64,000 bases of DNA from a plasmid. Below are positions 8,578 to 34,953 of the stretch, piece by piece. The DNA is taken from the sequence record NZ_CP020440.2. One strand, 5' to 3'. Each line of letters opens with the position of its first letter. Position 1 is the stretch's first letter. The notes beneath the pieces are model-generated. The model was not told the DNA's origin. It saw only the letters and a list, made by a program, of their open reading frames with translations, and made no database searches. The position numbers were made by a program, and so were the translations under genes.

Positions 8578-8883
8578 ATGATCCCTGGCGAATATTTCCT
8601 GTCGGACGACGAGATCGAGATCAACGCCGGACGCGACACCGTCACCCTCGAGGTGAAGAACTCCGGCGACCGCCCGGTGCAGGTCGGCTCTCACTACCAC
8701 TTCTTCGAGGTGAACGACGCGCTCGTCTTCGACCGGGACAAGGCGCGGGGCTTTCGCCTGAACATTCCGGCGGGAACCGCCGTCCGCTTCGAGCCGGGGC
8801 AGGACCGGGTCGTCGAACTGGTGGCCACTGGCGGCGCGCGCGAGATCCACGGGTTCCGCGGCCTGGTCATGGGCAAGCTTTGA
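8578..8883 (+). CDS. ureB: Urease beta subunit
   Basis: 101 aa [19 protein letters not shown]..., canonical UreB. Confidence 0.95.
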
Positions 8884-8896
8884 GGAAATTTCAGAC

Positions 8897-10600
8897 ATGG
8901 TGACCATTTCCCGATCCACCTATGCCGACCTTTATGGCCCGACCACGGGCGACCGCATCCGCCTGGCCGACACGGACCTGATCATCGAGATCGAGGAGGA
9001 TTACGCCATCCGCGGCGAGGAGGTGACCTTTGGCGGCGGCAAGGTCATCCGCGACGGGATGGGGCAGTCGCAGCGCGTTTCGGCCGAGACCGCCGATGTC
9101 GTCATCACCAATGCGGTGATCCTGGACCATTGGGGCATCGTCAAGGCGGACGTCGGCATCAAGGACGGCCGCATTTCGGGCATCGGCAAGGCCGGCAACC
9201 CCGATATCCAGCCGGGCGTGACCATCGTCATCGGCCCCGGCACCGACATCATCGCGGGCGAGGGCGCGATCCTGACGCCGGGCGGCATTGACAGCCATAT
9301 CCACTTCATCTGCCCGCAACAGGCCGAGGAGGCGCTGGCCAGCGGCACCACGACGCTGGTGGGCGGCGGCGCCGGGCCGACCGTCGGCACCCTTGCAACG
9401 ACCGTGACCGCCGGTCCCTGGGCCATGCACCGGATGCTCGAGGCCGCCGACGCGCTGCCGGTCAACATCGGCCTGCTGGGCAAGGGCAACGCCAGCCGGC
9501 CCGAGGGTCTGCGCGAACAGGTCCGCGCCGGCGCCTGCGGGCTGAAGCTGCACGAGGACTGGGGCACCACCCCCGCCGCCATCGACACCTGCCTGACCGT
9601 CGCCGACGAGATGGACTTCCAGGTCGCGATCCATACCGACACGCTGAACGAAAGCGGCTTCGTGCGCGACACCATCGCGGCGATGAAGGGCCGCACGATC
9701 CACAGCTTCCACACCGAGGGCGCGGGCGGCGGTCACGCGCCCGACATCATCACCGCGGCGGGCGAGGAGAACATCCTGCCCTCGTCGACCAACCCGACGC
9801 GGCCCTACACCGTCAACACGGTGGACGAGCATCTCGACATGCTGATGGTCTGCCACCATCTCAGCCCCAGCATCCCCGAGGACGTGGCCTTCGCCGAAAG
9901 CCGCATCCGCAAGGAAACCATCGCGGCCGAGGACATCCTGCACGACCTTGGCGTCTTTTCGATGATGTCGTCGGACAGCCAGGCGATGGGGCGCATCGGC
10001 GAAACCACGCTGCGCTGCTGGCAGACCGCCCACAAGATGAAGGTCCAGCGCGGCCCCCTGCCCGAGGACAGCACCCGGAACGACAATTTCCGCGCCAGAC
10101 GCTATGTCGCGAAATACACGATCAACCCGGCGATCACCCACGGCTTTGCCCATGAGATCGGCTCGATCGCCGTCGGCAAGCGGGCGGATCTGGTGCTTTG
10201 GAAACCGGCCTTCTTTGGCGTCAAGCCAAAGCTGGTGATCGTCGGCGGCATGATCGCGATGGCGCCGATGGGCGATCCCAACGCCTCGATCTCGACCCCG
10301 CAGCCGGTGCATTACCGGCCGATGTACGGCCTTTACGGACGGGCGCTGGCCTCGACGGGCGTGACCTTTGTGTCGCAGGCGGCGCTGGACGACGGGATCG
10401 GCGACAAGCTGAAGCTTGCCAAGGCGCTGTCGGCGGTGCGCGGCACGCGCAGCGTGAAGAAAAAGGACATGATCCACAACGGCTTGACTCCAAAGCTTGA
10501 AGTCGATCCCCAGACCTACCAGGTGCGGGTGAATGGCGAGATCATCACCTGCGAGCCTGCGGAAAGCCTGCCGATGGCGCAGCGCTATTTCCTGTTCTGA
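8897..10600 (+). CDS. ureC: Urease alpha subunit (nickel-dependent amidohydrolase)
   Basis: 567 aa with the urease alpha signature regions ([29 protein letters not shown]). Confidence 0.95.
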
Positions 10601-10672: not shown

Positions 10673-11383
10673 CTACGCAGGCGCGATCACCTGCTGCAGG
10701 ATGTCCAGCGTCTCCATCGTGTCGCTCTTGGCCCGGGCAAGGTTCTCCCTTGCCCGTCCGCTCAGCGCGGAAGTCAGCCGAGCCGGCGGAATGAACCTTT
10801 TATAGTCAGACTTGGTCCGGGGCACGGGACCGCTCGACCGCAGCCCGAGTGCCTCGAGGAACGCGGGAAGGTCGGCATCAAGATGCTGGGTCCGCAGCAG
10901 ATGCGTGCGGTCCGGCGGCAGCCTTCGCGCTAGCGCCGGCGGAAGGTACCATCCCAGGTCCATCTGCATGTGCAGCTTGCTGGCATGCAGCGCAAGCTCG
11001 GCCATCTCGCGCCTTTTCGGATCGGTGTCGCTCAGGGCCTCGGCCACGTCGTTCGCCGTCCTGAACATGTTGAAGATCCGTTGCCAGACCCCGTTCTTGG
11101 CCTTCTTTTCAGGCCTTGTCAGAACCTTGCTGTAAAGGTCCCATTCAAAGGCAGAGATGAAGCGGCTGCAGGGATCGCGAAGGGGAATCAGGAACGCGTC
11201 CCTTTCTTCCTGCCGTAATATCACGTCGTGAATGTCTCTGTCCGCGGTTCCGACATGGTATGCGGTGAATTTCAGACGTTGGTCGGACAACACCTTGATG
11301 ACCGTCTCGCCCCCGCACTTTCCGACATGAAGGAAGTGGTAATGGAGCCGGGGACCCTGTGCGGCGCGGCTAGGTTCAATCAT
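10673..11383 (-). CDS. Sulfotransferase-family protein (PAPS-binding 5'-PSB-like motif HVGKCGGET); orphan gene in a lower-GC stretch
   Basis: 236 aa. The N-terminal HYHFLHVGKCGGETV resembles the sulfotransferase HxPKTGGTS P-loop-like motif. GC is lower than the flanks, and the gene is convergent with ureC. Confidence 0.55.
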   Translation of the reverse strand: MIEPSRAAQGPRLHYHFLHVGKCGGETVIKVLSDQRLKFTAYHVGTADRDIHDVILRQEERDAFLIPLRDPCSRFISAFEWDLYSKVLTRPEKKAKNGVWQRIFNMFRTANDVAEALSDTDPKRREMAELALHASKLHMQMDLGWYLPPALARRLPPDRTHLLRTQHLDADLPAFLEALGLRSSGPVPRTKSDYKRFIPPARLTSALSGRARENLARAKSDTMETLDILQQVIAPA

Positions 11384-11818
11384 ATCCGTTCAACCTCTAG
11401 TACGATAAGAGCCGAGGACTTTCTTTGTCCTCACGGTCCGTTGACGCCTCTGTCCTGCGCCGCCTTTGCAATTGCAAGGTTACGCAGGACAGAATCCTGT
11501 TGGTGTAGCGTCGTTTGCACAGTCGGGCTTTCGAGCATCGCAGGGAAAGGTCGGAAGGGATTGCGCGTCCTCCTGCATCATCGAACGCCAGTGCTCTGCC
11601 CCTATCCGTGCGGCGGCTCCTCCTCTTCTGCGGCCTTTCTGGCCAGGTATCTGTGCTTGCGTGTCGTGGGGCGCAGCTTGCGGAAGGACTGGCCATAGCG
11701 CAGTGGCTTAGCCGGTCGATTGTCGAGCCCATGTGCGCCAACCGCTCGGCCAGGACCTCGTCCGTGATCGAACGCGGAGGGCGTCAGAGAGGACAACTCG
11801 CCCATCCCCCGGCAACGT

Positions 11819-23790: not shown

Positions 23791-24895
23791 GGAAGTCCTT
23801 GAACAGCGGAAAGGTTTCGGGATCGGACAGCAGCCGTTCCGGCGCGTCACGCGCGGCGCCGTCCCGGATCAGCGCAAAGCCGCCGGGCACGGCCACCAGC
23901 GTCACGGCGGCAGGGCCGGGATGCGCGCAGCCCTTGGCGCAGCCCGAGACATGGAGCATCGCCCCGCGCGGCACCCCTGCGGCCAGCGCGCGCGCCAGCG
24001 GCCGCGTCGGACCCCCGGCCTGCGGGCAGGCCGGCGCGCCCGCGCAGGCGGCGACCCGCAGCCGGGGGTCGTCCGGGCGGGCGATCAGCGCGGGGTGGCG
24101 GGCCAGCGCCGCGGGCAAGGGCCCCGGCAGCGCGATCATGCGCCAGGGCGTCAGACGCAGCGGGCCAACATCCGCAAGCCCGCCCAGCAGATCCGCCGGC
24201 ACCTCGCCAAAGACAAAGCCCGCCAGCCGCTGCGACGGTCCAGGCGGGGGCGGCAGCGGGGGCATCGGCACCGTTCCCGCCAGTTCGGGCGGCAGGACGG
24301 CGCCCCCCGCCAGATGCGCCGCCATCCGGCCGCGCCCGTCCGGGCCGACCCCGCCCGAGGCGATAAACCAGCGCGCCATCGCCATCGCGGCGGGCACGGC
24401 CCGATCCGCCGTCACAGGCAGGCCCAGGACCGCGCCCTGCGGGGCAAGCACCAGGCCTTCGCCCAGGCTGAGGATGCGGATGTCCGCCGCGACCGAGGCG
24501 CCCACCGCGAAGCCGAACTTGGCCGGCAGCGCCAGACCGTCGGCCGCGCGCAGGGCCTCGCCCAGCCGGGCGGCCACGGTTTCCTCGGCCGCATCATGGA
24601 AGGGGCACAGGATCAGGTTGCGCCGGGCCTCGGCCTCGGGGGTCGGGTCCAGCAGGCCGAGCCGCGCCAGGCCGGCGTGCAGGGCGGGCAGATCGGCGGG
24701 CCGGACGCCCCGGATCTGAAGGTTGGCGCGATTGGTGAGGTGCAGCGCCCCTGCCCCACAGCCCCGCGCCAGATCGGCCAGGCCACGCGCCTGCGCCGAC
24801 GATAGCCGGGACAGCGGCGGGCGCACCCGCAGGATCAGCCCGTCGCCCGAAGTCATCGGCCGCAGGGCACCGGGGCACCAGCCCTTGATCGTCAT
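23774..24895 (-). CDS. cobG: Precorrin-3B synthase CobG (oxygen-dependent monooxygenase, sulfite/nitrite reductase-like)
   Basis: Start MTIKGWCPGALRPM (CAT 24893-24895). About 373 aa. Its presence marks the aerobic pathway. Confidence 0.8.
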   Translation of the reverse strand: MTIKGWCPGALRPMTSGDGLILRVRPPLSRLSSAQARGLADLARGCGAGALHLTNRANLQIRGVRPADLPALHAGLARLGLLDPTPEAEARRNLILCPFHDAAEETVAARLGEALRAADGLALPAKFGFAVGASVAADIRILSLGEGLVLAPQGAVLGLPVTADRAVPAAMAMARWFIASGGVGPDGRGRMAAHLAGGAVLPPELAGTVPMPPLPPPPGPSQRLAGFVFGEVPADLLGGLADVGPLRLTPWRMIALPGPLPAALARHPALIARPDDPRLRVAACAGAPACPQAGGPTRPLARALAAGVPRGAMLHVSGCAKGCAHPGPAAVTLVAVPGGFALIRDGAARDAPERLLSDPETFPLFKDFHAPEL

Positions 24896-27800
24896 CCCCC
24901 GGTCTCCATCGCCAGCGAATTGCGGCGCGTCAGCCACAGCCCCGCCGCCCGCAGCGCGGCAAAGCGGTTGCGCAGCGCGGCCAGCGCCGCCGGGTTGTCC
25001 CGCGCCATGAAATCGACGACCTCGGGCCGGCCCAGCGTCGCGTCGTGATAGAGGTCGAACAGGTGCGGCGGGACCGCCCGGGTCAGGTTCGCAAAACCGG
25101 CCAGATGGTCCAGCGTCGCCGCGATCTCGGCCGCGCCGCGAAAGCCGTGGCGCATCATGCCCGCGGCCCAGGCCGGATCGGCGGCGCGGGCGCGGGTGAC
25201 GCGGGCGATTTCCTCGGACAGGGTGCGGGCGCGCAGCGCCTGGGGCCGGGTCGCGTCCAGATGATAAAGCGCGGGCGCCTCGGCCCCAAGGCGCGCCATG
25301 GCCGCCGCAAAGCCGCCCTCATGCGCCGCGTAATCGGCCGCCAGCAGCAGATCGGTTTCGGCCAGGTCCTGCACATGGACAAAGGCATCCGACGCGCGCA
25401 GCCGCGATTCCAGCGCGGAACGCGCAGGCGCCACGGCGCCGTCGCGGCCGATGGCCCAGGACGATCCGGCAAGCCATGCCTCGCCCGCGTCGTCCCGGCC
25501 GCCAGCGTAATCCTGCAAGGCCCCGCCCATGCCCAGCCCGTAATGCCCGGGCCGGGGGCCAAAGACTCGGGGGACGGCGTGGCGATAGGGGTTTTCGGCC
25601 AGTGGCTCGTCCCGCGCGGCCAAGGCAGCCGCGCCGGTTTCAAAGATTTGCGCCAGCCCCGGAAAGATGTCGCGAAACAGGCCCGAGACGCGCAGCGTCA
25701 CGTCGATGCGCGGCCGGCCCAGCATCGCCAGAGGCAGGATCTCGGCCCCGGTGACGCGCGCGCCGCCCTGATCCCAGCGCGGGGCCAGGCCCGCCAGATG
25801 CAGCGCCATGGCGAAATCCTCGCCCGCCGTGCGCATGGTGGCCGAGCCCCACAGGTCCACGACCAGCCCGCGCGGCCAGTCGCCGTGGTCCTGCAGGTGG
25901 CGGCGCAGCAATTCCTCGGCCATGCGCACGCCCTGGGCATGGGCGGCGGGCGAAGGCACGGCGCGGGGATCGACGGAATAAAGATTGCGCCCCGTCGGCA
26001 GCACGTCGCCCCGCCCGCGATGGGGCGAACCCGAGGGGCCAGCCGCGACCCGCCGCCCCGACAGCGCCGCGGCCAGGCCCGCCATCTCGCCCTGGGCTGC
26101 GCCATAGACGTGCAGCCCGTCGCCGAACCGGGTTTCCTTGAGGTCGCAGACAAAGCGGTCGATGCGGGGGATCGCCTCGGCCGGGCTGGCGTCCGAGGGC
26201 AGGCCCAGGTCGTCCTCGACCCCGGCCAGGCGGGCCTCGTCGCGGATCGCGGCGATCAGGCGGTCGCGGCGGGCGGGGTCCAGCCCGTCGGCGGTCGAAT
26301 ATTCGTCAAGCAGCACTTCCAGCCGGGCAAGGCCGGTCCGGCTGGCCGGGACCAGCGGCGGGGGCATGTGGCCCAGCGTCACCGCGCCGATCCGGCGGCG
26401 GGCCTGCGCGGCCTCGCCCGGATCGTTCACGATGAAGGGATAGATCACCGGCACGCCCGCCGTCAGCGCCTCGGGCCAGCAGTCGGCGGACAGGGCGACC
26501 GCCTTGCCGGGCAGCCATTCCAGCGTGCCATGCGCACCGACATGGACCATGGCGTGAATCCCCTGCGCCCGCAGCCACAGGTAGAAGGCGACATAGCCGT
26601 GGCGAGGAACGCGGGACAGGTCGTGGTATTCGGCATCGCGCGGCCCATCGCCGCGTTCGGGCTGCAGGGCGATCAGCGCCGCCCCGCGCCGAACGGCGGC
26701 AAAGCGGAACGCCCCCGACGCAATCCCCGGATCGTCCTCGGGCCGGCCCCAGGCGGCGGCCAGCGCCTTGCGCAGCGCCGGGGACAGCGTCTTGAGCGCG
26801 GCGCGATAATCGGCGAGCGGCCAGGATTCCCGGGTCGTCAGCAACGCGGGCGCCAGAGGGTCGCCGGGCGCCGTGTCCCAGCCGGCCGCCCCAAGTCCCG
26901 CCAGCACGGCATCGCATGAGGCCAAGGCGTCCAGCCCCACCGCATGGGCGATCTGGTCGGCGCGGCCGGGATAGGTCGACAGCACCACCGCCAGCCGCCG
27001 CTGCGGAGCGGGCGTGGCCGCCAGTCGGTGCCAGCCCGCCACGCGCTCGACCACCGCCGCCACCCGGTCGGGGATCGCATGATGCAGGGTGCGGGCGCAT
27101 TGCAGGTCCGGGTCGCGCGTGCCGGGCTGCTTGCAGCTTACGATCCCCGCGCAAAGCCGGCCGTCGACCTCGGGCAGGACGACATGCATGGCAAGATCGG
27201 CCGGCGACAGGCCGCGTTCCGCTCCGGCCCAGGCGGCCTGCGGCGCGGTCGACAGCGCCACCTGGAACACTGGGCAATCGGGCGCATCCAGGGCCGAGCC
27301 GCCCGCCGCGTCCCGCGCCGAAAAGGCGGTGGCGTTGACGATGGCCACCGGCGACAGCGCATCCAGCGCCGCCCGCACCCACTCCCCGACGCCTGGCGCC
27401 TTGAGCGAGGGCACGAACAGCCCCGCCGCCGAAAAGCCGCGCGCGCGCAGGGCCGCGATCAGGGCACGGATTGGCTGGGTGTCCCCGGCCGCGAGCCAGG
27501 CGCGATAGAAGACGACAGCCACGGCAGGCCCCTCGCCCACGGGCGGCGCCGAAACGACGCCCCGGTCGGGATCGAACCAGCCGCAATCGGGCAGCGCCTG
27601 GCCCTGCGGCGGTGGCGCGGCCTCAAGCCCCGCCGCCCGGGCCAGCGCCGAAAGCGCCGCCCAGCCCGCATCCGGCCCGCCCGCCCGGCACAGGTCCGAG
27701 AGTTCGCGCAGCACGGAAACCGGCAGCGTGGACAGCTCGTCAAGGCGCGGATCCTCGGCCCCGTCGCCGGGCAGGACTGCAAGCGCGATCCCCTGCCGGC

Positions 27801-28122
27801 GGGCCAGGTCCTGCACCGCCATCAGGCCGTAGGACCAATAGCTTTCCCCGCCGATCAGCCGGACCAGAATGGCCCGGGCGCCCGCCAGCGTGCGTTCGAC
27901 ATAGGTATCGACCGACACCGGATGGCGCAGCGCCGCAAGGTTCGCAAGCCGCAACCCGGGCAGCGGCCGTCCCGCCGCCCGGGCGCGATGCCAGCCCTCG
28001 GCAAAGCCGCCGAGGTCGCTGTCCGAAAACGACAGCACCACCAGATCGGCCGGGTCCTGGCCCAGATCGGTCGGCACCGCCGCATCCTCAAGCCCAAGGC
28101 TCTCGCGAAAGACGACGTGCAT
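24892..28122 (-). CDS. cobN: Cobaltochelatase subunit CobN
   Basis: 1076 aa CobN/Mg-chelatase H-family protein (…YHDLSRVPRHGYVAFYLWLR…, …DYAGGRDDAGEAW…). Confidence 0.9.
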   Translation of the reverse strand: MHVVFRESLGLEDAAVPTDLGQDPADLVVLSFSDSDLGGFAEGWHRARAAGRPLPGLRLANLAALRHPVSVDTYVERTLAGARAILVRLIGGESYWSYGLMAVQDLARRQGIALAVLPGDGAEDPRLDELSTLPVSVLRELSDLCRAGGPDAGWAALSALARAAGLEAAPPPQGQALPDCGWFDPDRGVVSAPPVGEGPAVAVVFYRAWLAAGDTQPIRALIAALRARGFSAAGLFVPSLKAPGVGEWVRAALDALSPVAIVNATAFSARDAAGGSALDAPDCPVFQVALSTAPQAAWAGAERGLSPADLAMHVVLPEVDGRLCAGIVSCKQPGTRDPDLQCARTLHHAIPDRVAAVVERVAGWHRLAATPAPQRRLAVVLSTYPGRADQIAHAVGLDALASCDAVLAGLGAAGWDTAPGDPLAPALLTTRESWPLADYRAALKTLSPALRKALAAAWGRPEDDPGIASGAFRFAAVRRGAALIALQPERGDGPRDAEYHDLSRVPRHGYVAFYLWLRAQGIHAMVHVGAHGTLEWLPGKAVALSADCWPEALTAGVPVIYPFIVNDPGEAAQARRRIGAVTLGHMPPPLVPASRTGLARLEVLLDEYSTADGLDPARRDRLIAAIRDEARLAGVEDDLGLPSDASPAEAIPRIDRFVCDLKETRFGDGLHVYGAAQGEMAGLAAALSGRRVAAGPSGSPHRGRGDVLPTGRNLYSVDPRAVPSPAAHAQGVRMAEELLRRHLQDHGDWPRGLVVDLWGSATMRTAGEDFAMALHLAGLAPRWDQGGARVTGAEILPLAMLGRPRIDVTLRVSGLFRDIFPGLAQIFETGAAALAARDEPLAENPYRHAVPRVFGPRPGHYGLGMGGALQDYAGGRDDAGEAWLAGSSWAIGRDGAVAPARSALESRLRASDAFVHVQDLAETDLLLAADYAAHEGGFAAAMARLGAEAPALYHLDATRPQALRARTLSEEIARVTRARAADPAWAAGMMRHGFRGAAEIAATLDHLAGFANLTRAVPPHLFDLYHDATLGRPEVVDFMARDNPAALAALRNRFAALRAAGLWLTRRNSLAMETGG

Positions 28123-28141
28123 CAGAGGGGACCGTGCCCGC

Positions 28142-29188
28142 TCATGGCGCGGCCGAAGCCGAGGCCAGGGCGGCGCGCAGCTGCGCGGGGTCCAGGTCGC
28201 CCTTTTCCGCGATCACCACCAGGCGCGAGGCGCGCGGGCCGCTCCAGGGCCGGTCGTACTGATGACGCACCCGGTCGCCCACCGCCTGCACCAGCAGCCG
28301 CATCGGCTTGCCCTGCACGGCGACATGGCCCTTGATGCGCAGCAGGCGGTGGTCGCGGGCCAGCCGCGCAAGCCTGTCCGCCAGCGCCCCGGGATCGTCG
28401 ATCTCGGGCAGGTCCAGCACCACCGTGTCGAAATCGTCGTGCTCGTGATCCTCGGCCCCGTCGTGGTGCGAGGGGCGGGCCGACAGGTCGTCCTCGGCCC
28501 GTGCGTCAAGGCCCAGGACCAGGCGCGGGTCGATCACCCCCTCGGTCAGGGGCAGGATGGGGACCGGGCGCGACAACTCGGCATGGACGGCCGCCAGCGC
28601 CGTGGCGACGCCGGCCTCTCCGGCCAGATCGGCCTTCGACAACAGCACGATGTCGGCGCAGGCGATCTGATCCTCGAACACCTCGGACAGGGGCGTTTCG
28701 TGGTCCAGGCTGTCGTCGGCCGCGCGCTGCGCCGCAACCGCCGCGGGGTCGGGGGCAAAGCGGCCCGCCGCCACCGCCTCGGCATCGGCCAGCGCGATCA
28801 CCCCATCCACCGTGATGCGCGAGCGGATCGCCGGCCAGTCGAACGCCTTGAGCAGGGGTTTGGGCAGCGCAAGGCCCGAGGTCTCGATCAGGATGTGGTC
28901 GGGGCGCTCGGGCAGCGCCATCAGCCGTTCGATGGTCGGGATGAAGTCGTCGGCCACGGTGCAGCAGATGCAGCCGTTGGCCAGTTCGACGATATTGCCC
29001 TCGGGGCAGTTCTCGTCGGCGCAGGCGCGCAGCAGGTCGCCATCGACGCCGAGCGCGCCGAATTCGTTGACCACGACCGCCAGCCGCTTGCCCTGCGGAT
29101 GGGCCATCAGGTGGCGGATCAGGGTCGTCTTGCCCGCGCCCAGAAAGCCGGTGATGACGGTGACGGGGATCTTGTTCAGGTCGGTCAT
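28142..29188 (-). CDS. cobW: Cobalamin biosynthesis GTPase CobW (COG0523 family)
   Basis: Start MTDLNKIPVTVITGFLGAGKTTLIRHLM (CAT 29186-29188). GCICCTV metal-binding motif and a His/Asp-rich stretch. Confidence 0.9.
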   Translation of the reverse strand: MTDLNKIPVTVITGFLGAGKTTLIRHLMAHPQGKRLAVVVNEFGALGVDGDLLRACADENCPEGNIVELANGCICCTVADDFIPTIERLMALPERPDHILIETSGLALPKPLLKAFDWPAIRSRITVDGVIALADAEAVAAGRFAPDPAAVAAQRAADDSLDHETPLSEVFEDQIACADIVLLSKADLAGEAGVATALAAVHAELSRPVPILPLTEGVIDPRLVLGLDARAEDDLSARPSHHDGAEDHEHDDFDTVVLDLPEIDDPGALADRLARLARDHRLLRIKGHVAVQGKPMRLLVQAVGDRVRHQYDRPWSGPRASRLVVIAEKGDLDPAQLRAALASASAAP

Positions 29189-29550
29189 GGCAGGGCCTCG
29201 GCTGGGGGGATACGGGCAAGCGTCTGCTTGCGGAACAGGATCGAGCGATCGCGCCAGGGCACGATGCCGTCGGGGGCGGCGGCATAGGCGGTCGCGCCGG
29301 CGACGATCTCGGGGGCGTGGGCCTCGGCCAGGCCGGCATAGACATAGGTCCAGCGGCCCGGGGCCGACAGGACCAGCGCACAGCCCTGAGAGCAGGCGGA
29401 CAGGCAGGCGACCGGGCGCAGGGCGAAGGGCGCGCCTGCGGGACGCGCGGCCTGAACCGCCGCGAACAGGCGTTCGCCCGCGCAGGGCACGCCTTCGTGT
29501 TGCGGCTGGCCCGCGCGGCAGGTCGTGCAGATCGTCAGCGTGACCGTCAT
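29185..29550 (-). CDS. Cys-rich DUF1636-like small protein (putative metal/Fe-S binding), first gene of the riboswitch-controlled cobW operon
   Basis: About 121 aa from MTVTLTICTTCRAG... with CxxC...C...C spacing. Its stop overlaps the cobW start. Confidence 0.6.
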   Translation of the reverse strand: MTVTLTICTTCRAGQPQHEGVPCAGERLFAAVQAARPAGAPFALRPVACLSACSQGCALVLSAPGRWTYVYAGLAEAHAPEIVAGATAYAAAPDGIVPWRDRSILFRKQTLARIPPAEALP

Positions 29551-29659
29551 ATGCCCTTCGTCCCATGGGACGGGCGGGGACGGACCTGCGGGGACGGGAC
29601 GTGCGCAAGCGGACGCGACCCTGCCCAAGCCGGTCGCGGAACACCCCGTCCGCCGTTGC

Positions 29660-29855
29660 TTCCTTGACGCTGGCAGGTCTCCCGGCTTGCGGATATCGGG
29701 GCCTTCGGCCCCGGCGGCGCCGCGCTCCTTCCCAGGCCCTTGGGGGGCCCAGTGGCATCGCGGACCTTCCCGGTCACGGTCGCGGGGGCGGCTGCGTTCG
29801 GGGCCAAGACCCCTTCGCATTCCCTCTTGGCCTGTCATAGACAGGAACCAGCGCG
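29660..29855 (-). ncRNA. Cobalamin (AdoCbl) riboswitch upstream of the DUF1636-cobW-cobN-cobGHIJ operon
   Basis: The minus strand reads ...GGTTCC...CCAAGAGGGAATGCGAAGG...CAGCCGCCCCCGCGACCGTGACCGGGAAGGTCCGCGATGCCACTGGGCC...GCCGGGAGACCTGCCAGC. The B12 box GCCACTG and the AAGAGGGAA, GGGAAGG and GAGACCTGCC elements come in the canonical order. Confidence 0.8.
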
Positions 29856-29898
29856 CGCCCAGATGACCGGGAACGCGGGGCAATGTCAAGGAGAGGCC

Positions 29899-30540
29899 AT
29901 GACCGACGCAACCCTTCCCCCCCCTGCCGTTTCCCCCGAGGAAGCCGCCCGGCACGCGCAGAAAAAGGCCCGCATCAAGCAGGCCCGCGACCGCATGATG
30001 ACCGAAAAGACCGGCGAGAAGGGGCTGGTCATCGTCCATACCGGGCCCGGCAAGGGCAAATCCTCGGCCGCGTTCGGGATGATCTTTCGCATGATCGCCC
30101 ATGACATGCCCTGCGCCGTGGTGCAGTTCATCAAGGGCGCGCGCCAGACCGGGGAACGCGCCCTGATCCAGCGCCATTTCGCGCATCTGTGCCAATTCCA
30201 CACCATGGGCGAGGGGTTCACCTGGGAAACCCAGGACAAGGCCCGCGACATCGCCGCCGCCCGCGCCGCCTGGGACAAGGGCAAGGCGCTGATCCGCGAC
30301 CCCGCCATCCGCATGGTGCTGCTGGACGAGATCAACATCGCGCTGCGCTACGGCTACCTGGACCCGACCGAGGTCGCGGCCTTTCTGCAGGGCGAAAAGC
30401 CGCAGATGACCCATGTGGTGCTGACCGGGCGGAACGCGCCGCCCGAACTGCTGGAGATCGCCGACCTGGCGACCGAGATGGCGCTGGTCCGCCACCCGTT
30501 CCGCGACGGCATCAAGGCCCAGCCGGGGGTCGAGTTCTAG
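29899..30540 (+). CDS. cobO: Cob(I)yrinic acid a,c-diamide adenosyltransferase CobO (BtuR/CobA family)
   Basis: Start MTDATLPPP (ATG 29899). P-loop HTGPGKGKSSAAFG and the conserved ...LLDEINIALRYGYL.... Confidence 0.85.
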   Translation: MTDATLPPPAVSPEEAARHAQKKARIKQARDRMMTEKTGEKGLVIVHTGPGKGKSSAAFGMIFRMIAHDMPCAVVQFIKGARQTGERALIQRHFAHLCQFHTMGEGFTWETQDKARDIAAARAAWDKGKALIRDPAIRMVLLDEINIALRYGYLDPTEVAAFLQGEKPQMTHVVLTGRNAPPELLEIADLATEMALVRHPFRDGIKAQPGVEF

Positions 30541-30950
30541 TCCCCGGCCAGGATCGCCTGGAACCGTTCGCGGGCGCGGGCGGGCAGGTCGTCGGGCAGG
30601 ACCGGGGCCTCGGCCTCGCCCACCTCGATCAGCATGACCATGCCCATCGCGACATGGGGCGAGCACTTGATGCCATAGCTGCCCGGCCGGGTCAGCGTGA
30701 CCGAGAAATCCTCGTTGATCTTCGAGCGGAAGGGTTCGGCCCCCTCGGGGATCATGCCGTCGATGGTCGCGGCGTTGTGGCCGGGCTGGGTCGGCAGGAA
30801 CCGCACCGTGTCGCCCGGCGCGATGCGCAGGCGCTGGGGTTCATAGACCATCGGCCCCTGGTCGTTGCGGTTCAGCATGTGGACCTCGTGCACCTCGGCC
30901 AGGGCGGCGTGGGGCAGGATCAGCAGGGCGGCGGTCAGCAGGGTTTTCAT
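30537..30950 (-). CDS. Pseudoazurin (type-1 blue copper cupredoxin) with signal peptide; translationally coupled to btuD
   Basis: 137 aa MKTLLTAALLILPHAALAEVHEVHMLN...GDTVRFLPTQPGHNA...SKINEDFSVTLTRPGSYGIKCSPHVAMGMVMLIEVG, with Cu ligands His/Cys/His/Met in pseudoazurin spacing. Only 3 nt after the btuD stop, with an AAGGAA RBS inside the btuD 3' end. Confidence 0.8.
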   Translation of the reverse strand: MKTLLTAALLILPHAALAEVHEVHMLNRNDQGPMVYEPQRLRIAPGDTVRFLPTQPGHNAATIDGMIPEGAEPFRSKINEDFSVTLTRPGSYGIKCSPHVAMGMVMLIEVGEAEAPVLPDDLPARARERFQAILAGD

Positions 30951-30953
30951 GGC

Positions 30954-31721
30954 TTATTCCTTGAGACAATGAAAGCGCAGCAGCGTCGCCGCGTCGACCG
31001 GATCGGTCAGGCGGCGCGCGCCGACGCGGAAGGTTCCGGCAAGGCGGGCATCGTCCAGCACCGCAGCCGGGGGGCCGCTGGCGACCATCCGGCCGCCCGC
31101 CATCACCCCCAGCCGATCGCAGCCCATTGCCTGGTTCAGGTCGTGCAGCGCCACGATCACCGTCACCGGCAAGCCGGCGATCAGGCGCAGCAGCGACAGC
31201 TGGTGGTGGATGTCCAGATGGTTCGTCGGCTCGTCCAGCAGCAGCAGGCGGGGCCGCTGGGCAAGGGCGCGGGCGATGCTGATGCGCTGGCGTTCGCCCC
31301 CCGACAACGTGGCCCAGGGGGCGTCGGCCAGGGCCATCATCCCCACCGCCGCCAGCGCCTGTTCGACGATGGCCGCATCGGCATCCGAAAAGGGTGCCAG
31401 CGCCGACAGCCAGGGTGTGCGGCCCAGGGCCACCACCTCGCGCGCGCTCAGCGCCTCGGCGGTGTCGGCCTGCTGCTCGACCAGCGCCACGCGCTGCGCG
31501 ATCTGGCGCCGGGACAGCGAGGCCAGGGGCGCGCCGTCCAGCGCGACCTGCCCCAGGGCGCGCGGCAACAGGCCCGCGACCAGCCGAAGCAGCGTGGACT
31601 TGCCCGAGCCGTTCGGACCGACCAGGCCGAACGTCTCGCCCGCCGCGATCGACAGGCTGACGCCCTGGACGATGGCGCGGGGGCCGGCGCGCCAGCCCAG
31701 GTCGCGGGTCTCGACCCTCAT
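30954..31721 (-). CDS. btuD: ABC transporter ATP-binding protein, FecE/BtuD type (cobalamin/iron-siderophore family)
   Basis: Start MRVETRDLGW (CAT 31719-31721). Walker A GPNGSGKST and LSGGERQRISIARAL. Confidence 0.8.
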   Translation of the reverse strand: MRVETRDLGWRAGPRAIVQGVSLSIAAGETFGLVGPNGSGKSTLLRLVAGLLPRALGQVALDGAPLASLSRRQIAQRVALVEQQADTAEALSAREVVALGRTPWLSALAPFSDADAAIVEQALAAVGMMALADAPWATLSGGERQRISIARALAQRPRLLLLDEPTNHLDIHHQLSLLRLIAGLPVTVIVALHDLNQAMGCDRLGVMAGGRMVASGPPAAVLDDARLAGTFRVGARRLTDPVDAATLLRFHCLKE

Positions 31722-32758
31722 ACCCGCCTCCGGTTGCCGATCAGGATCAGGGCAAAGCCCGGCGCCCCGACCAGCGCGGTGACGACGCCGATGGGCACCA
31801 CCTGCCCCGGGATCAGCAGGCGCGAGGCGACATCCGCCGCGATCAGGAACACCGCCCCCGCCAGGGCCGAGGCCGGGACCAGCGCGCGGTGGCCCGGGCC
31901 CACCAGAAAGCGCATGGCATGGGGCACGACCAGCCCGACGAAGCCGATCGAGCCGACCAGGCTGACCATCACCGCCGTCATCAGCGTGGTCACGCCGATC
32001 AGCACCACCTGGACGCGCCGCACGGGCACCCCCAGCGCCGCCGCCGACTGCGCGCCAAAGGCAAAGGCGTCCATCGCCCGCGCGTGCCACAGGCAGGCCA
32101 GATAGCCCAGCAGCGCCGCGGGGACCGCCAGCGTCACGTCGGGCCAGCGCACGCCCGACAGGTTGCCCAGAAGCCAGAACATGATGCCGCGCGCCTGTTC
32201 GGCATTCGCTGAACGCGCGATGAAGAACGAGGTCAGCGCATTGAACAGCTGCGATCCCGCGATGCCCGCCAGGACCAGCTGCGCGGGTCCGCCCCCCGCC
32301 GCCCGGGCCAGCGCCGCGACCAGGCCAAAGGCCAGTCCCGCCCCGGCAAAGGCGCCCATCGACAGGCCGATCAGCCCGCCGCCCAGGCCCATGATCGTGA
32401 CCGCGACCGCCCCGGTCCCCGCCCCAGCGGAAACGCCCAGCAGATAGGGATCGGCCAGCGCGTTCCTGACCAGCGACTGCAGGACGACGCCCGCCAGCGC
32501 CAGCCCCGCTCCGCACCCCGCCGCGACCAGCGTGCGGGGCAGGCGATAGTTCCACAGGATGCCGGCCTCGATCGGGTCGACCGCGTGGGTCCCCAGGCCC
32601 AGCCGGTCGGCCAGCACCGCCAGCACGGTCAGGGGCGAGACCGGGGTTTCCCCGATCGCGACCCCGGCCAGCACGGCCAGCGCCAGCAGGGCCCCGCCAA
32701 GCGCCCCCCGCCGCAGCAGGACGGGCGCGCGCGGGGCCGGGGCTGCGGCCTCGGTCAT
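31718..32758 (-). CDS. btuC: ABC transporter permease, FecCD/BtuC family
   Basis: 346 aa polytopic membrane protein of the FecCD family. Stop overlaps the btuD start. Confidence 0.8.
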   Translation of the reverse strand: MTEAAAPAPRAPVLLRRGALGGALLALAVLAGVAIGETPVSPLTVLAVLADRLGLGTHAVDPIEAGILWNYRLPRTLVAAGCGAGLALAGVVLQSLVRNALADPYLLGVSAGAGTGAVAVTIMGLGGGLIGLSMGAFAGAGLAFGLVAALARAAGGGPAQLVLAGIAGSQLFNALTSFFIARSANAEQARGIMFWLLGNLSGVRWPDVTLAVPAALLGYLACLWHARAMDAFAFGAQSAAALGVPVRRVQVVLIGVTTLMTAVMVSLVGSIGFVGLVVPHAMRFLVGPGHRALVPASALAGAVFLIAADVASRLLIPGQVVPIGVVTALVGAPGFALILIGNRRRV

Positions 32759-33775
32759 TTCAGGCCAAGGCCGGGCAAGGCCTCGGCCAGGGTCTCAAGC
32801 GCCGCGACGTTGCGGATCGAGGGGTCCATCGAATGGGCGTCCAGCACGATGATGCGGTCGTTCCTGACCGCGTCCACCTGGCTGGCCACCGGGTCCGATT
32901 TCAGGAAGGCGAGCTTCTTTTCCACGTCGTCCGCCTCGAACCGGCGGCGGTCCATGCGCGCCACCACGATGACCGAAGGGTTGGCGCGGGCGATGCTTTC
33001 CCAGCTGACGGTCGGCCATTCCTCGTCGCTTTCGACCACGTTGCTCAGGCCAAGCGCCTGCATCATGGAGCCGGGCGGCCCCTTGCGCCCCGCCACATAG
33101 GGGTCGATGTCCATCTCGGCCGAGGAAAACCAGAACACCGCCGAGGCATCCTTGAGGTCAAGCGCCCGCGCCTTTTCGACGGCGGCGGCCTCGCGCGCCT
33201 TCAGGCTGTCGACCAGCGCCTCGCCCCGGTCAGACACGTCGAAGATCTGCGACAGTTCGCGCACGCCGGCATAGACGCTTTCCATCTCGAACATGGCGGT
33301 GCGCGTGCCGTCGGATCCGGTCGAATTGTCCTTGGCCCAGCAATCGGCCGGCAGGATATAGGTCGGGATGCCCAGGTCGTCGAACTGCTCGCGCGTGGCC
33401 ACGATCCCCTGCGGGCCGACGTGCCATTCGTATTGCACGGCGACCAGCCCGGGCCGCTTGGCGACCACGGCTTCGAAGGAAGGATCGTTGTCGGCCAGCC
33501 GCTCAATCCCGGCATTCACCGCCTCGTATTCGGGCAGGACCTTGGTGAACCAGACGGCGGTGCCGGTCACCTTGTCGGCCAGGTCCAGCGCATAGAGCAC
33601 CTCGGTCGCGGCCTGGCCCAGGCTGACCACGCTGTCGGGCGCCTGCTGGAAGGTCAGCGTGCGACCGCAGTTTTCAAGCTGCAGCGGATAGGCGGTTTCG
33701 GCCGCGGCGGGCAGCGCAAGACAGGTCGCGCCGAGCAGCGGGGCGAGAAAACGGGCAGACGTCATGGGTGATCTC
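32755..33775 (-). CDS. btuF: Periplasmic binding protein, BtuF/FecB cluster (vitamin B12 / siderophore type)
   Basis: Start MTSARFLAPLLGATCLALPAAA (signal peptide; CAT 33773-33775). PBP class III fold. Directly downstream of a cobalamin riboswitch. Confidence 0.7.
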
Positions 33776-33934
33776 CGGTCATGAGAGCGACCGGAGACAG
33801 GCGAACGGGAGGAGCAGCCCAGGACCAGGCGCGCGCCGGGGGCGGCGCGGTCTGACGGAAACGGGCGTGACGGGTCACGCCGGGGGCAAACATCATAGGA
33901 CACCTCCCCGGACACCCCGCCCGGGCCGCGTTGC

Positions 33935-34115
33935 ATTTGTGCCGGCAGGTCTCCTGACTGGCGGGTCGCGGGGTTGTCGCGTCCTTCCCATGACAAGCGC
34001 CACAGTGGATGCGTTGCGAAAACCCTAGCCGCCTACAGTTGCGGGGGCAGTTCCGGTTCGCCTTGCGGGGTCGGACCCCGGGCCGGCGGCGGATTCCCTT
34101 TCAATTCCTTTCGGA
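33935..34115 (-). ncRNA. Cobalamin riboswitch upstream of btuF-btuC-btuD-pseudoazurin
   Basis: The minus strand reads GAAAGGGAATCC...GGCGAACCGGAACTGCCCCCGCAACTGTAGG...CCACTGTGGCG...GGGAAGG...GCCAGTCAGGAGACCTGCCGGC. This is a textbook arrangement of B12-riboswitch conserved blocks. Confidence 0.85.
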
Positions 34116-34178
34116 AACCGACGCATCCAGATAGCCCGGGCCGCACCACCGGGCAAGCCCCTTGTCACCGCGCGCGCG

Positions 34179-34953
34179 TCAGGGCGGGCAAAGCCGCACC
34201 GTGGTCCCCCAGTCGGCGCAGCGGGCCGCAAGGGCGCGGGGCAGCGGCTGGTCGGTGAAGACGGTGTCGATTTCGGACAGGCTGGCGATGCGGGCGGGTG
34301 CGGGGCGGCCCAGCTTGGAATGGTCGGTGACCAGGAAGGCGCGCCGCGCCTGGCGCAGGATCGCGCGGCTGACGCGGACCTCGGCCAGGTCGAAATCCAG
34401 CAGGTCCCCGTCGATGTCCAGCGCCGAGGTGCCGATCACCGCATAATCGACCTTGAACTGTTCGAAGAACTGGGTGGTCAGTTCGCCCACCAGCCCGCCG
34501 TCCGAACGCCGCAGCGCGCCCCCCGCCACCATGATCTCGCAGCCCGGGTTCGCCAGCAGGATGTTCGCGACGTTCATGTTGTTCGTCACCACCGTCAGGT
34601 TCTGGTGGTGGACCAGAGCGCGGGCCACCGCCTCGGTCGTGGTGCCCAGGTTCAGGATCAGGCTGGAGTTGTCGGGGATCGTCGCGGCGCAGGCGGCGCC
34701 GATGGCGGCCTTGGCCTCGGCGTTCATGCGGCGGCGCGATTCGTAGCCCAGGTTCACGGCGCCCGCGCGCGGCACCGCGCCGCCATGCACCCGGTCCAGC
34801 AGCCCCGCCTCGGCCATCTCGCCCAGGTCGCGGCGGATGGTCTGCAACGTCACCTCGAACCGCTGGGCCAGATCCTCGACCAGCACGCGGCCCTCGGACC
34901 GGGCAAGGTCCAGGATCTCGTTCTGCCGGATGCTCAGGGCCATGCGCCGTCCT
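34179..34953 (-). CDS. glpR: DeoR/GlpR-family transcriptional repressor (glycerol-3-phosphate regulon)
   Basis: Start MALSIRQNEILDLARSEGRVLVEDLAQRFEVTLQTIRRDL (DeoR HTH; CAT 34951-34953) plus a C-terminal sugar-phosphate sensor domain. Divergent from glpD. Confidence 0.8.

Follow-up and report, generated by a model that had tools for sequence, protein, structure and literature searches.

What is the gene for a pseudoazurin, a blue-copper electron carrier, doing at the end of an importer operon governed by a cobalamin riboswitch? The question is raised by a 64,000-nucleotide stretch of a Paracoccus yeei plasmid (sequence record NZ_CP020440.2; hereafter, the window), in which the riboswitch, the genes for a periplasmic substrate-binding protein, a FecCD-family permease and an ATP-binding cassette (ABC) ATPase, and the pseudoazurin gene are predicted to constitute a single operon. 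Taken jointly, the operon, its co-regulation and the assignment of its transporter to the type of the Sinorhizobium meliloti cobalt importer CbtJKL are, in our judgment, very probably correct. The whole package, which adds a role for the pseudoazurin as a periplasmic redox helper, is a closer call that tilts slightly toward doubt. The operon comprises the following elements:

33927..34137, minus strand: cobalamin riboswitch aptamer (Rfam RF00174, 100.3 bits)
33766..33926, minus strand: leader or expression platform (fold of the sequence)
32755..33765, minus strand: cbtJ-like periplasmic substrate-binding protein, 336 aa (Pfam Peripla_BP_2, 130 bits)
31718..32758, minus strand: cbtK-like FecCD-family permease, 346 aa (Pfam FecCD, 279 bits)
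30954..31721, minus strand: cbtL-like ABC ATPase, 255 aa (Pfam ABC_tran, 123 bits; start according to RefSeq)
30957..30962, minus strand: Shine-Dalgarno sequence AAGGAA of the pseudoazurin gene, in the ATPase coding end (read from the sequence)
30537..30950, minus strand: pseudoazurin, 137 aa (TIGR02375, 129.5 bits)

Gene boundaries are those that RefSeq assigns in a Paracoccus yeei plasmid of 99% identity, with window proteins 98–100% identical. An initial annotation of this DNA had proposed three transporter genes followed by a complete pseudoazurin gene on the minus strand; open reading frames (ORFs) and Pfam domains agree with that layout, and the ORF at 30950–30537 passes the TIGR02375 cut-off of 109.85 bits. 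The cobalamin riboswitch that it had placed at 33935–34115 (minus strand) corresponds to an Rfam match at 33927–34137 that covers the complete model (positions 1–189; E 6.7e-24; gathering threshold 31.5 bits), and 161 nt separate the end of this element from the start codon of the binding-protein gene on the same strand. The leader folds into a hairpin, CUCCGGUC...GACCGGAG, whose 3′ arm contains GGAG ahead of the binding-protein AUG, with a z-score of only −1.6.

Overlaps of 4 nt join the binding-protein, permease and ATPase genes, each to the next. At the last junction, the ATPase stop codon TAA (30956–30954) is followed by GCC and by the pseudoazurin ATG at 30950, and AAGGAA (30962–30957) stands 6 nt ahead of this ATG within the ATPase coding end, so that the 3-nt gap and the internal ribosome-binding site described initially can both be read in the sequence. 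A GAGGA/GGAG-like motif occupies the equivalent place in most orthologous loci, as judged from upstream 20-mers. A hairpin at 30993–30976 was considered as an internal terminator at this junction and rejected as non-functional, being weak, with a poor T tract and situated in the conserved coding end. The original claim that the pseudoazurin gene has no space for a promoter of its own is upheld by the 3-nt gap and by a consensus scan of positions 29500–34600, itself weak evidence, that returned no sigma-70-like promoter. Since the gene belongs to a riboswitch-headed, translationally coupled operon without promoter room, its co-repression by adenosylcobalamin, also proposed at the outset, would be the expected behavior.

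Synteny in other genomes had been set beforehand as a test of this arrangement. A scan of one genome per species yielded 258 confirmed pseudoazurin relatives, and the best 80 of these 258 were analyzed. An ATPase gene lies directly upstream of pseudoazurin in 77 of the 80 loci, spread over several proteobacterial orders, which rules out a strain-specific accident; the recurrence of the gene order in that many independent genomes is far beyond chance. Between the two genes, 27 loci show a gap of −4 nt, 24 a gap of −1 to +4 nt and 24 more a gap of +8 to +25 nt; in the two remaining outliers, the starts are probably mis-called. Permease and binding-protein genes precede in 74–75 of the loci. The hosts include many Rhodobacterales, Hyphomicrobiales (Ectorhizobium, Pseudochelatococcus, Stappia, Ensifer), Rhodospirillales, Acetobacteraceae (Roseomonas) and Lautropia, together with the Pseudomonas putida group and its relatives, which contribute 15 loci; we take all of them to be aerobes or facultative aerobes. 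Clustering of all flanking ORFs shows that only the four operon genes are common across loci, the neighborhoods varying otherwise; the unit, conserved in approximately 75 species, is thus a self-contained and often plasmid-borne cassette that has moved between classes. Neither nir nor nos genes were found in the operon or its conserved flanks.

The riboswitch accompanies the cassette. Rfam detects it ahead of the orthologous operon in all 12 phylogenetically diverse loci to which it was applied, as well as in three plasmid-borne loci (L092–L094) and in Roseomonas and P. ferrooxidans (L083, L084), and an nhmmer profile built from these riboswitches finds it ahead of the operon in nearly all 80 loci. 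The sole intact operon seen without one is that of Paracoccus alkanivorans (L013, 2700–3190), which contains pseudoazurin and methyltransferase genes and has no riboswitch upstream by either Rfam or the profile. The Cereibacter sphaeroides plasmid (L094) bears two more cobalamin riboswitches in divergent orientation, at 8647–8848 (minus strand) and 8983–9194 (plus strand), located just downstream of pseudoazurin and ahead of a cobyric acid synthase gene and an unannotated minus-strand gene. A locus in Pseudomonas sp. NPDC089392 (L073, 499–1340), where riboswitch and leader are joined to pseudoazurin, was considered as an independent riboswitch–pseudoazurin design and rejected: blastn resolves it into two fused flanking blocks with cbtJKL deleted, a derivative of the standard operon. 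Downstream of it lie genes for MesX (PF08908), a core MetE-like B12-independent methionine synthase and a LysR regulator.

The identity of the transporter departs from what had been assumed. Every sequence-level detail of the initial annotation is borne out except the gene names btuF, btuC and btuD, an interpretation that we reject on the NCBIfam equivalog cut-offs together with the match to CbtJKL. The binding protein does not match the NCBIfam BtuF model; the permease reaches 218 and 201 bits on the BtuC models, which have cut-offs of 461 and 334, and the ATPase obtains 121.7 bits on the BtuD model (cut-off 281). The best NCBIfam matches of the transporter, EitA/EitC and "F420-0" transporter models, are themselves below threshold, with 307 bits on EitA for the binding protein (cut-off 640) and 289 bits on EitC for the ATPase (cut-off 485). 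In P. yeei, the exact binding-protein sequence is annotated as 'ABC transporter substrate-binding protein', and its closest solved relative, 4mlz, is an unliganded structural-genomics entry that provides no ligand clue.

The counterpart is found in S. meliloti CbtJKL (SMb20056-58), the primary description of which is reportedly that of Cheng et al. 2011, J Bacteriol 193:4405. This family is without a curated hidden Markov model, and the assignment was made by identity, gene order and riboswitch, using positions 55–80 kb of pSymB (locus L081) for comparison. There, a cobalamin riboswitch (11247–11476, 119.6 bits) precedes genes for a binding protein, a permease and an ATPase, and the window proteins are 54, 64 and 50% identical to them, respectively (64–65% for the permease and 50–51% for the ATPase). 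The pSymB binding protein is SMb20056 (CbtJ) by published coordinates, and its NCBIfam profile is the same as that of the window binding protein. The SMb20055/SMb20056 intergenic region falls exactly on the pSymB riboswitch, an Rfam B12 element precedes smb20056 (PMC2780559, PMC2245857), and CbtJKL is located in a 38.5-kb region together with SMb20072 (PMC12239276); because coordinates, Rfam listing and region agree, we identify this locus as cbtJKL. S. meliloti CbtJKL is an ABC cobalt importer encoded on pSymB under a cobalamin riboswitch, and its mutants require a cobalt supplement (PMC7689651, PMC4207669, PMC12239276, PMC11009365). Its expression is repressed by cobalamin (PMC7689651, PMC11009365). 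The window transporter is thus predicted to be the counterpart of CbtJKL rather than of BtuFCD. S. meliloti CbtJ is also closer to the riboswitch-linked copy of Rhodobacter capsulatus (51% identity) than to the adjacent riboswitch-less paralog (44%). That paralog belongs to a FecCD-type importer lying directly upstream of the riboswitch operon on plasmid pRCB133 (L092, 168–3954), with 44, 57 and 54% identity to CbtJKL and accompanied by genes for a drug/metabolite (DMT) transporter and a TonB-dependent receptor, and it constitutes a useful natural control for substrate assignment.

Genes that frequently join the cassette bear on the same point. The S. meliloti system shares with the window operon its gene order and upstream riboswitch and, with many relatives of that operon, a downstream gene for a class I S-adenosylmethionine-dependent methyltransferase, the frequent fifth gene of these loci. 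This gene stands directly after cbtL in S. meliloti (L081 14553–15332), with no pseudoazurin in between, whereas the window operon has a pseudoazurin and no methyltransferase gene. Elsewhere it follows pseudoazurin, frequently overlapping by 4 nt, in 20 of the 80 genomes and also in R. capsulatus and Ensifer (L092 7711–8499, on R. capsulatus pRCB133; L093 7770–8576; L083 5385–6167). Its products are 60–63% identical where compared (R. capsulatus, Ensifer), with a distant copy (46%) in P. ferrooxidans, and their best NCBIfam match is a weak one to 'corrinoid protein-associated methyltransferase CpaM' (67–73 bits, cut-off 180). The presence of the same methyltransferase gene after cbtL in S. meliloti and after pseudoazurin in other genomes supports the CbtJKL assignment.

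A second addition hints at the size of the substrate. In 12 Pseudomonas loci (L060 6369–7706, and L050, L053, L061, L063, L067, L069, L070 and L075–L078), an OprD-family porin gene (PF03573, 441 bits) follows pseudoazurin, mostly with a 4-nt overlap with its stop. The pseudoazurin gene of these bacteria therefore sits between inner- and outer-membrane uptake genes, in a riboswitch-headed operon with outer-membrane, periplasmic and inner-membrane parts. Small solutes pass OprD channels, whereas B12 requires a TonB-dependent receptor, and no gene for such a receptor was found in the window operon or in the conserved flanks of the orthologous loci. The porin gene points to a small substrate. One Nitratireductor contig has a major facilitator superfamily (MFS) transporter gene after pseudoazurin. 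With the BtuFCD cut-offs failed, a CbtJKL counterpart at hand and an OprD porin in Pseudomonas, the corrinoid-transport operon of the initial annotation is probably the wrong frame.

The pseudoazurin itself is predicted to be a complete, exported type-1 copper protein. Its residues 22–135 align to solved pseudoazurins (E 1.9e-39), and it holds the type-1 copper ligands H58, C96, H99 and M104, with the loop C-x2-H-x4-M; these residues are kept in 84, 84, 83 and 84, respectively, of 84 clade members. The N-terminus, MKTLLTAALLILPHAALA/EV, resembles by eye a Sec signal that ends in an AxA site (ALA/EV). An AlphaFold2 model (predicted local distance difference test score, pLDDT, 90.7) shows the cupredoxin beta-sandwich with a helical extension at the C-terminus (helix 124–135). 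The top 27 Foldseek matches in the PDB are all pseudoazurins with template-modeling (TM) scores of 0.80–0.90, the closest at 0.86–0.90 with root-mean-square deviations of 1.4–2.1 Å, and structural alignment gives 52–55% identity to the Achromobacter cycloclastes structures. Fold, ligands and ligand loop are thus those of canonical pseudoazurins (A. cycloclastes 1bqk, Alcaligenes faecalis 1paz, Paracoccus PazS/Pden_4222), to which it is 46–55% identical by structural alignment. It differs from them in its riboswitch-controlled metal-importer context, devoid of nir, nor and nos genes, in falling into a separate clade, in the replacement of K38 and K46, and in that its clade, unlike the canonical denitrification proteins, occurs in non-denitrifying pseudomonads.

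This clade emerges in a neighbor-joining tree (bootstrapped on 41 taxa with 100 replicates), where the operon-linked pseudoazurins cluster apart from those of other contexts and from the A. cycloclastes protein with a bootstrap of 71/100; it also includes a Roseomonas copy adjoining an IS5 element. Pseudoazurins of other contexts, at most 57% identical to the window protein, are found with nirK/norCBQD (Aestuarium), NnrS (Martelella), Rrf2/truncated hemoglobin, a molybdoenzyme cluster, fixN/Fnr and a quinoprotein dehydrogenase cluster, and the Martelella NnrS locus, the sole one of these examined for it, has no cobalamin riboswitch. The window protein is part of a subclade that is all but confined to this place in the operon. 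Residues Y36, A61 and P119 are specific to the clade, the corresponding positions elsewhere being Phe, Glu and variable. Basic residues are kept at the docking positions K10, K57, K59 and K77 of denitrification pseudoazurins, with P56 and D64 in place of K38 and K46. Isoelectric point and net charge overlap between the operon clade and canonical pseudoazurins and are uninformative.

These elements can be assembled into a mechanism. By analogy with S. meliloti, scarce adenosylcobalamin would lead the riboswitch to de-repress the whole operon, the job of which would be to supply cobalt for B12 synthesis, and the cell would co-produce a cobalt importer and a periplasmic copper electron carrier. 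Once reduced by the respiratory chain, the carrier would pass electrons to periplasmic cobalt, turning inert Co(III) chelates into labile Co(II), and it could rescue Co(II) that had become oxidized on the binding protein, allowing CbtJ to hand Co(II) to the permease; either the substitution inertness of Co(III) complexes or the autoxidation that Co(II) undergoes in air on N/O-donor sites would keep cobalt from reaching an ABC importer. In vitro, reduced cupredoxins, pseudoazurin among them, readily give up an electron to Co(III) complexes, [Co(phen)3]3+ for example; the potential of pseudoazurin is about +0.26–0.28 V and that of Co(III/II)-EDTA about +0.37 V. We put forward this redox-helper mechanism as a possible but tentative one. 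That the pseudoazurin clade is a working part of cobalt acquisition, supplying periplasmic electrons to reduce cobalt or keep it reduced for CbtJKL, is likewise a doubtful proposition that we advance with due reserve. The initial annotation had envisaged periplasmic redox handling of corrinoids or cobalt, or a link between copper and cobalt; our results favor the cobalt and copper–cobalt direction, while its corrinoid side is probably misplaced.

Several observations weigh against a cobalt-reducing role. Cobalt is known as the substrate for the S. meliloti system, 54% identical, only, and the transporter family also contains siderophore-annotated members (EitABC). S. meliloti CbtJKL functions without an operon-encoded pseudoazurin, and close relatives of the operon lacking one occur in Rhizobium tumorigenes, in a Parvibaculaceae metagenome-assembled genome (beside cbtAB), in Pseudosulfitobacter pseudonitzschiae (78% binding-protein identity, with cobF/cobA/cobM alongside) and in Billgrantia, where cobN, cbiM and a distinct, shorter system resembling BtuF lie next to it. 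With several lineages operating the importer in its absence, the pseudoazurin would be a helper or accessory rather than a core part. The Pseudomonas deletion derivative described above could in turn reflect a use of pseudoazurin independent of the transporter. None of the clade-specific residues points to a cobalt-related site, the bootstrap of the clade is only moderate, the leader fold has a low z-score, and control may be translational or transcriptional. We know of no experiment tying any pseudoazurin to cobalt uptake.

The rest of the neighborhood helps in weighing what else the operon might do. Next to it, the window contains the following features:

29899..30540, plus strand: cobO (corrinoid adenosyltransferase), convergent with the operon (Pfam CobA_CobO_BtuR, 210 bits; NCBIfam NF004637, 266 bits; RefSeq)
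29655..29867, minus strand: second cobalamin riboswitch, heading DUF1636-cobW-cobN (Rfam RF00174, 77.5 bits)
24892-29551, minus strand: DUF1636-cobW-cobN unit, followed by precorrin-3B synthase (Pfam, RefSeq)
28142-29189, minus strand: cobW (ORF, Pfam, RefSeq)
24892-28122, minus strand: cobN (ORF, Pfam, RefSeq)

The cobO gene is thus flanked by two B12-sensing units, and cobW and cobN are cobalt chaperone/chelatase genes, for delivery and insertion, of the oxygen-dependent (aerobic) B12 pathway; in this setting, a cobalt importer fits better than a B12 importer. The stop codons of pseudoazurin and cobO share the palindrome CTAG (30537–30540) in a 4-nt overlap. No terminator separates the two genes, the next terminator-like hairpin on the minus strand (29986–29966) lying inside cobO, and for this reason the operon transcript may run antisense through cobO. 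Elsewhere in the window, positions 9046–9332 (minus strand) give a full-length Rfam match to the Helicobacter '5_ureB_sRNA' (75 bits, gathering threshold 40), in which the model most likely recognizes a conserved urease gene on its antisense strand rather than a real small RNA.

Corrinoids are one competing substrate. A transporter acting as a BtuFCD analog would import them, and the pseudoazurin would reduce periplasmic corrinoid before binding or transport, for instance from aquacob(III)alamin to cob(II)alamin, a couple that at about +0.2 V lies within cupredoxin reach. Control by a cobalamin riboswitch is in keeping with such a function, and type II FecCD importers usually carry large chelates (B12, heme, siderophores). 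CbtJ was itself initially taken as a BtuF relative (PMC7689651). We nevertheless regard corrinoid import as unlikely, given the missing BtuF match and the permease and ATPase scores far under the BtuC and BtuD cut-offs, the cobalt uptake of the characterized counterpart, and the location of the operon alongside cob genes of the aerobic de novo pathway, cobW and cobN among them. The Pseudomonas operons likewise combine an OprD small-solute porin with the lack of a TonB-dependent receptor, and Billgrantia possesses its shorter BtuF-like system beside, and separate from, the CbtJ-like one.

A contribution of the pseudoazurin to cobalt import might also dispense with electron transfer, if the apo-protein soaked up periplasmic copper, and so kept it from blocking the cobalt-binding protein, or if it bound Co(II) and passed it to CbtJ. 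The Irving-Williams order implies that copper would out-compete cobalt at most periplasmic sites, type-1 sites take up Co(II) in vitro, and the apparent Sec-type signal peptide read from the sequence would have the protein fold and acquire its metal in the periplasm. Such buffering or chaperoning is nonetheless improbable in our estimation: ligands and loop are identical to those of redox-active pseudoazurins and kept in 83–84 of the 84 clade members, the clade has no extra conserved cluster of His, Cys, Asp or Glu, its specific residues being Y36, A61 and P119, and one carrier per metal ion would make a costly buffer.

A further explanation detaches the pseudoazurin from the transporter, to which it would be linked by a shared regulator only, and makes it an ordinary respiratory donor, for example to N2O reductase. 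B12 depletion would then raise electron flow to NosZ and relieve the inactivation of B12 by N2O. The retained basic residues at K10, K57, K59 and K77 are compatible with this role, as is the Pseudomonas deletion locus, which keeps riboswitch and pseudoazurin without cbtJKL next to a B12-independent methionine synthase pair. N2O inactivation of B12 turns on B12-riboswitch genes in Paracoccus denitrificans, according to a passage of PMC5987163 that relays Sullivan 2013. The gene, however, is invariably found behind the ATPase gene, sandwiched in Pseudomonas between it and the porin gene, and the docking-ring residues K38 and K46 are lost (P56, D64). The operon is also common in the Pseudomonas putida group (15 loci), whose members are non-denitrifying aerobes, and the canonical Paracoccus pseudoazurin is encoded by a separately regulated denitrification gene adjoining nos. 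We hold this explanation to be quite improbable. Finally, that the pseudoazurin is a mere passenger, a general electron carrier without specific operon function, would suit a mobile, often plasmid-borne cassette with variable flanks that has moved between classes and several lineages of which lost the gene yet kept the transporter, but this is very unlikely, since a neutral gene would decay or move, whereas this one has retained its position, its tight coupling and a complete copper site in at least five orders, with products 55–99% identical to the window protein.

The proposed pairing of a cobalt importer with a copper redox helper has partial parallels among known systems. E. coli BtuFCD is likewise a type II (FecCD-family) importer with a class III binding protein, and riboswitch control is typical of B12 uptake; the window proteins differ in missing the BtuF, BtuC and BtuD cut-offs and in having no TonB-dependent receptor in their operon. 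EfeO of EfeUOB and the FetP/P19 class provide examples of a periplasmic copper or cupredoxin-fold protein encoded with an iron importer; the proposed role of these proteins is to alter the redox state of the metal or to maintain it. They belong to other protein families, work with Ftr1/EfeU-type permeases instead of ABC transporters, and deal with iron and not cobalt. EitABCD, found on E. coli, Klebsiella and Cronobacter plasmids and annotated as a siderophore/iron importer, furnishes in EitA and EitC the best, sub-cut-off NCBIfam matches, and we know of no riboswitch or pseudoazurin at its loci. Enterobacterial plasmid operons of the eitABC type (E. coli, Klebsiella, Cronobacter, Pantoea) encode binding proteins 43–47% identical to S. 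meliloti CbtJ; approximately 260 such plasmids match, annotated as iron/siderophore importers and termed cbtJKL in some papers, and the substrate of these importers may deserve a second look.

The initial annotation had called the arrangement undescribed. This is correct for the searchable literature, in which a full-text search found no paper linking pseudoazurin or cupredoxin with a B12 riboswitch, btuF, cobalt uptake or cbtJ, an earlier passing mention being possible in the primary CbtJKL or 2003 comparative B12-regulon papers. It does not extend to genomes, where the arrangement is common and routinely annotated gene by gene. Riboswitch, importer family and pseudoazurins are each known; what is undescribed is their conserved union, with its functional implication.

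If the proposed role is true, cobalt uptake would for the first time have a cupredoxin assigned to it, and a direct link between copper, cobalt and B12 under riboswitch control would be established. B12 production in soils and in the sea is limited by cobalt, much of which is present in the environment in strong, often Co(III), complexes. To our knowledge, it has not been established how aerobic B12 producers free bound cobalt, and we know of no accessory factors described for CbtJKL, the one characterized ABC cobalt importer; a conserved, riboswitch-controlled copper carrier in the operon is a concrete candidate for this task. It would also account for a pseudoazurin clade in non-denitrifying organisms by assigning it a function. 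Operons of this kind are frequently taken for B12 or iron importers, and predictions from genomes as to whether Rhodobacterales and pseudomonads take up B12 or cobalt may accordingly be wrong. B12 synthesis in many aerobic Proteobacteria, from marine roseobacters to soil pseudomonads, would be partly copper-dependent, and copper status could influence B12 output.

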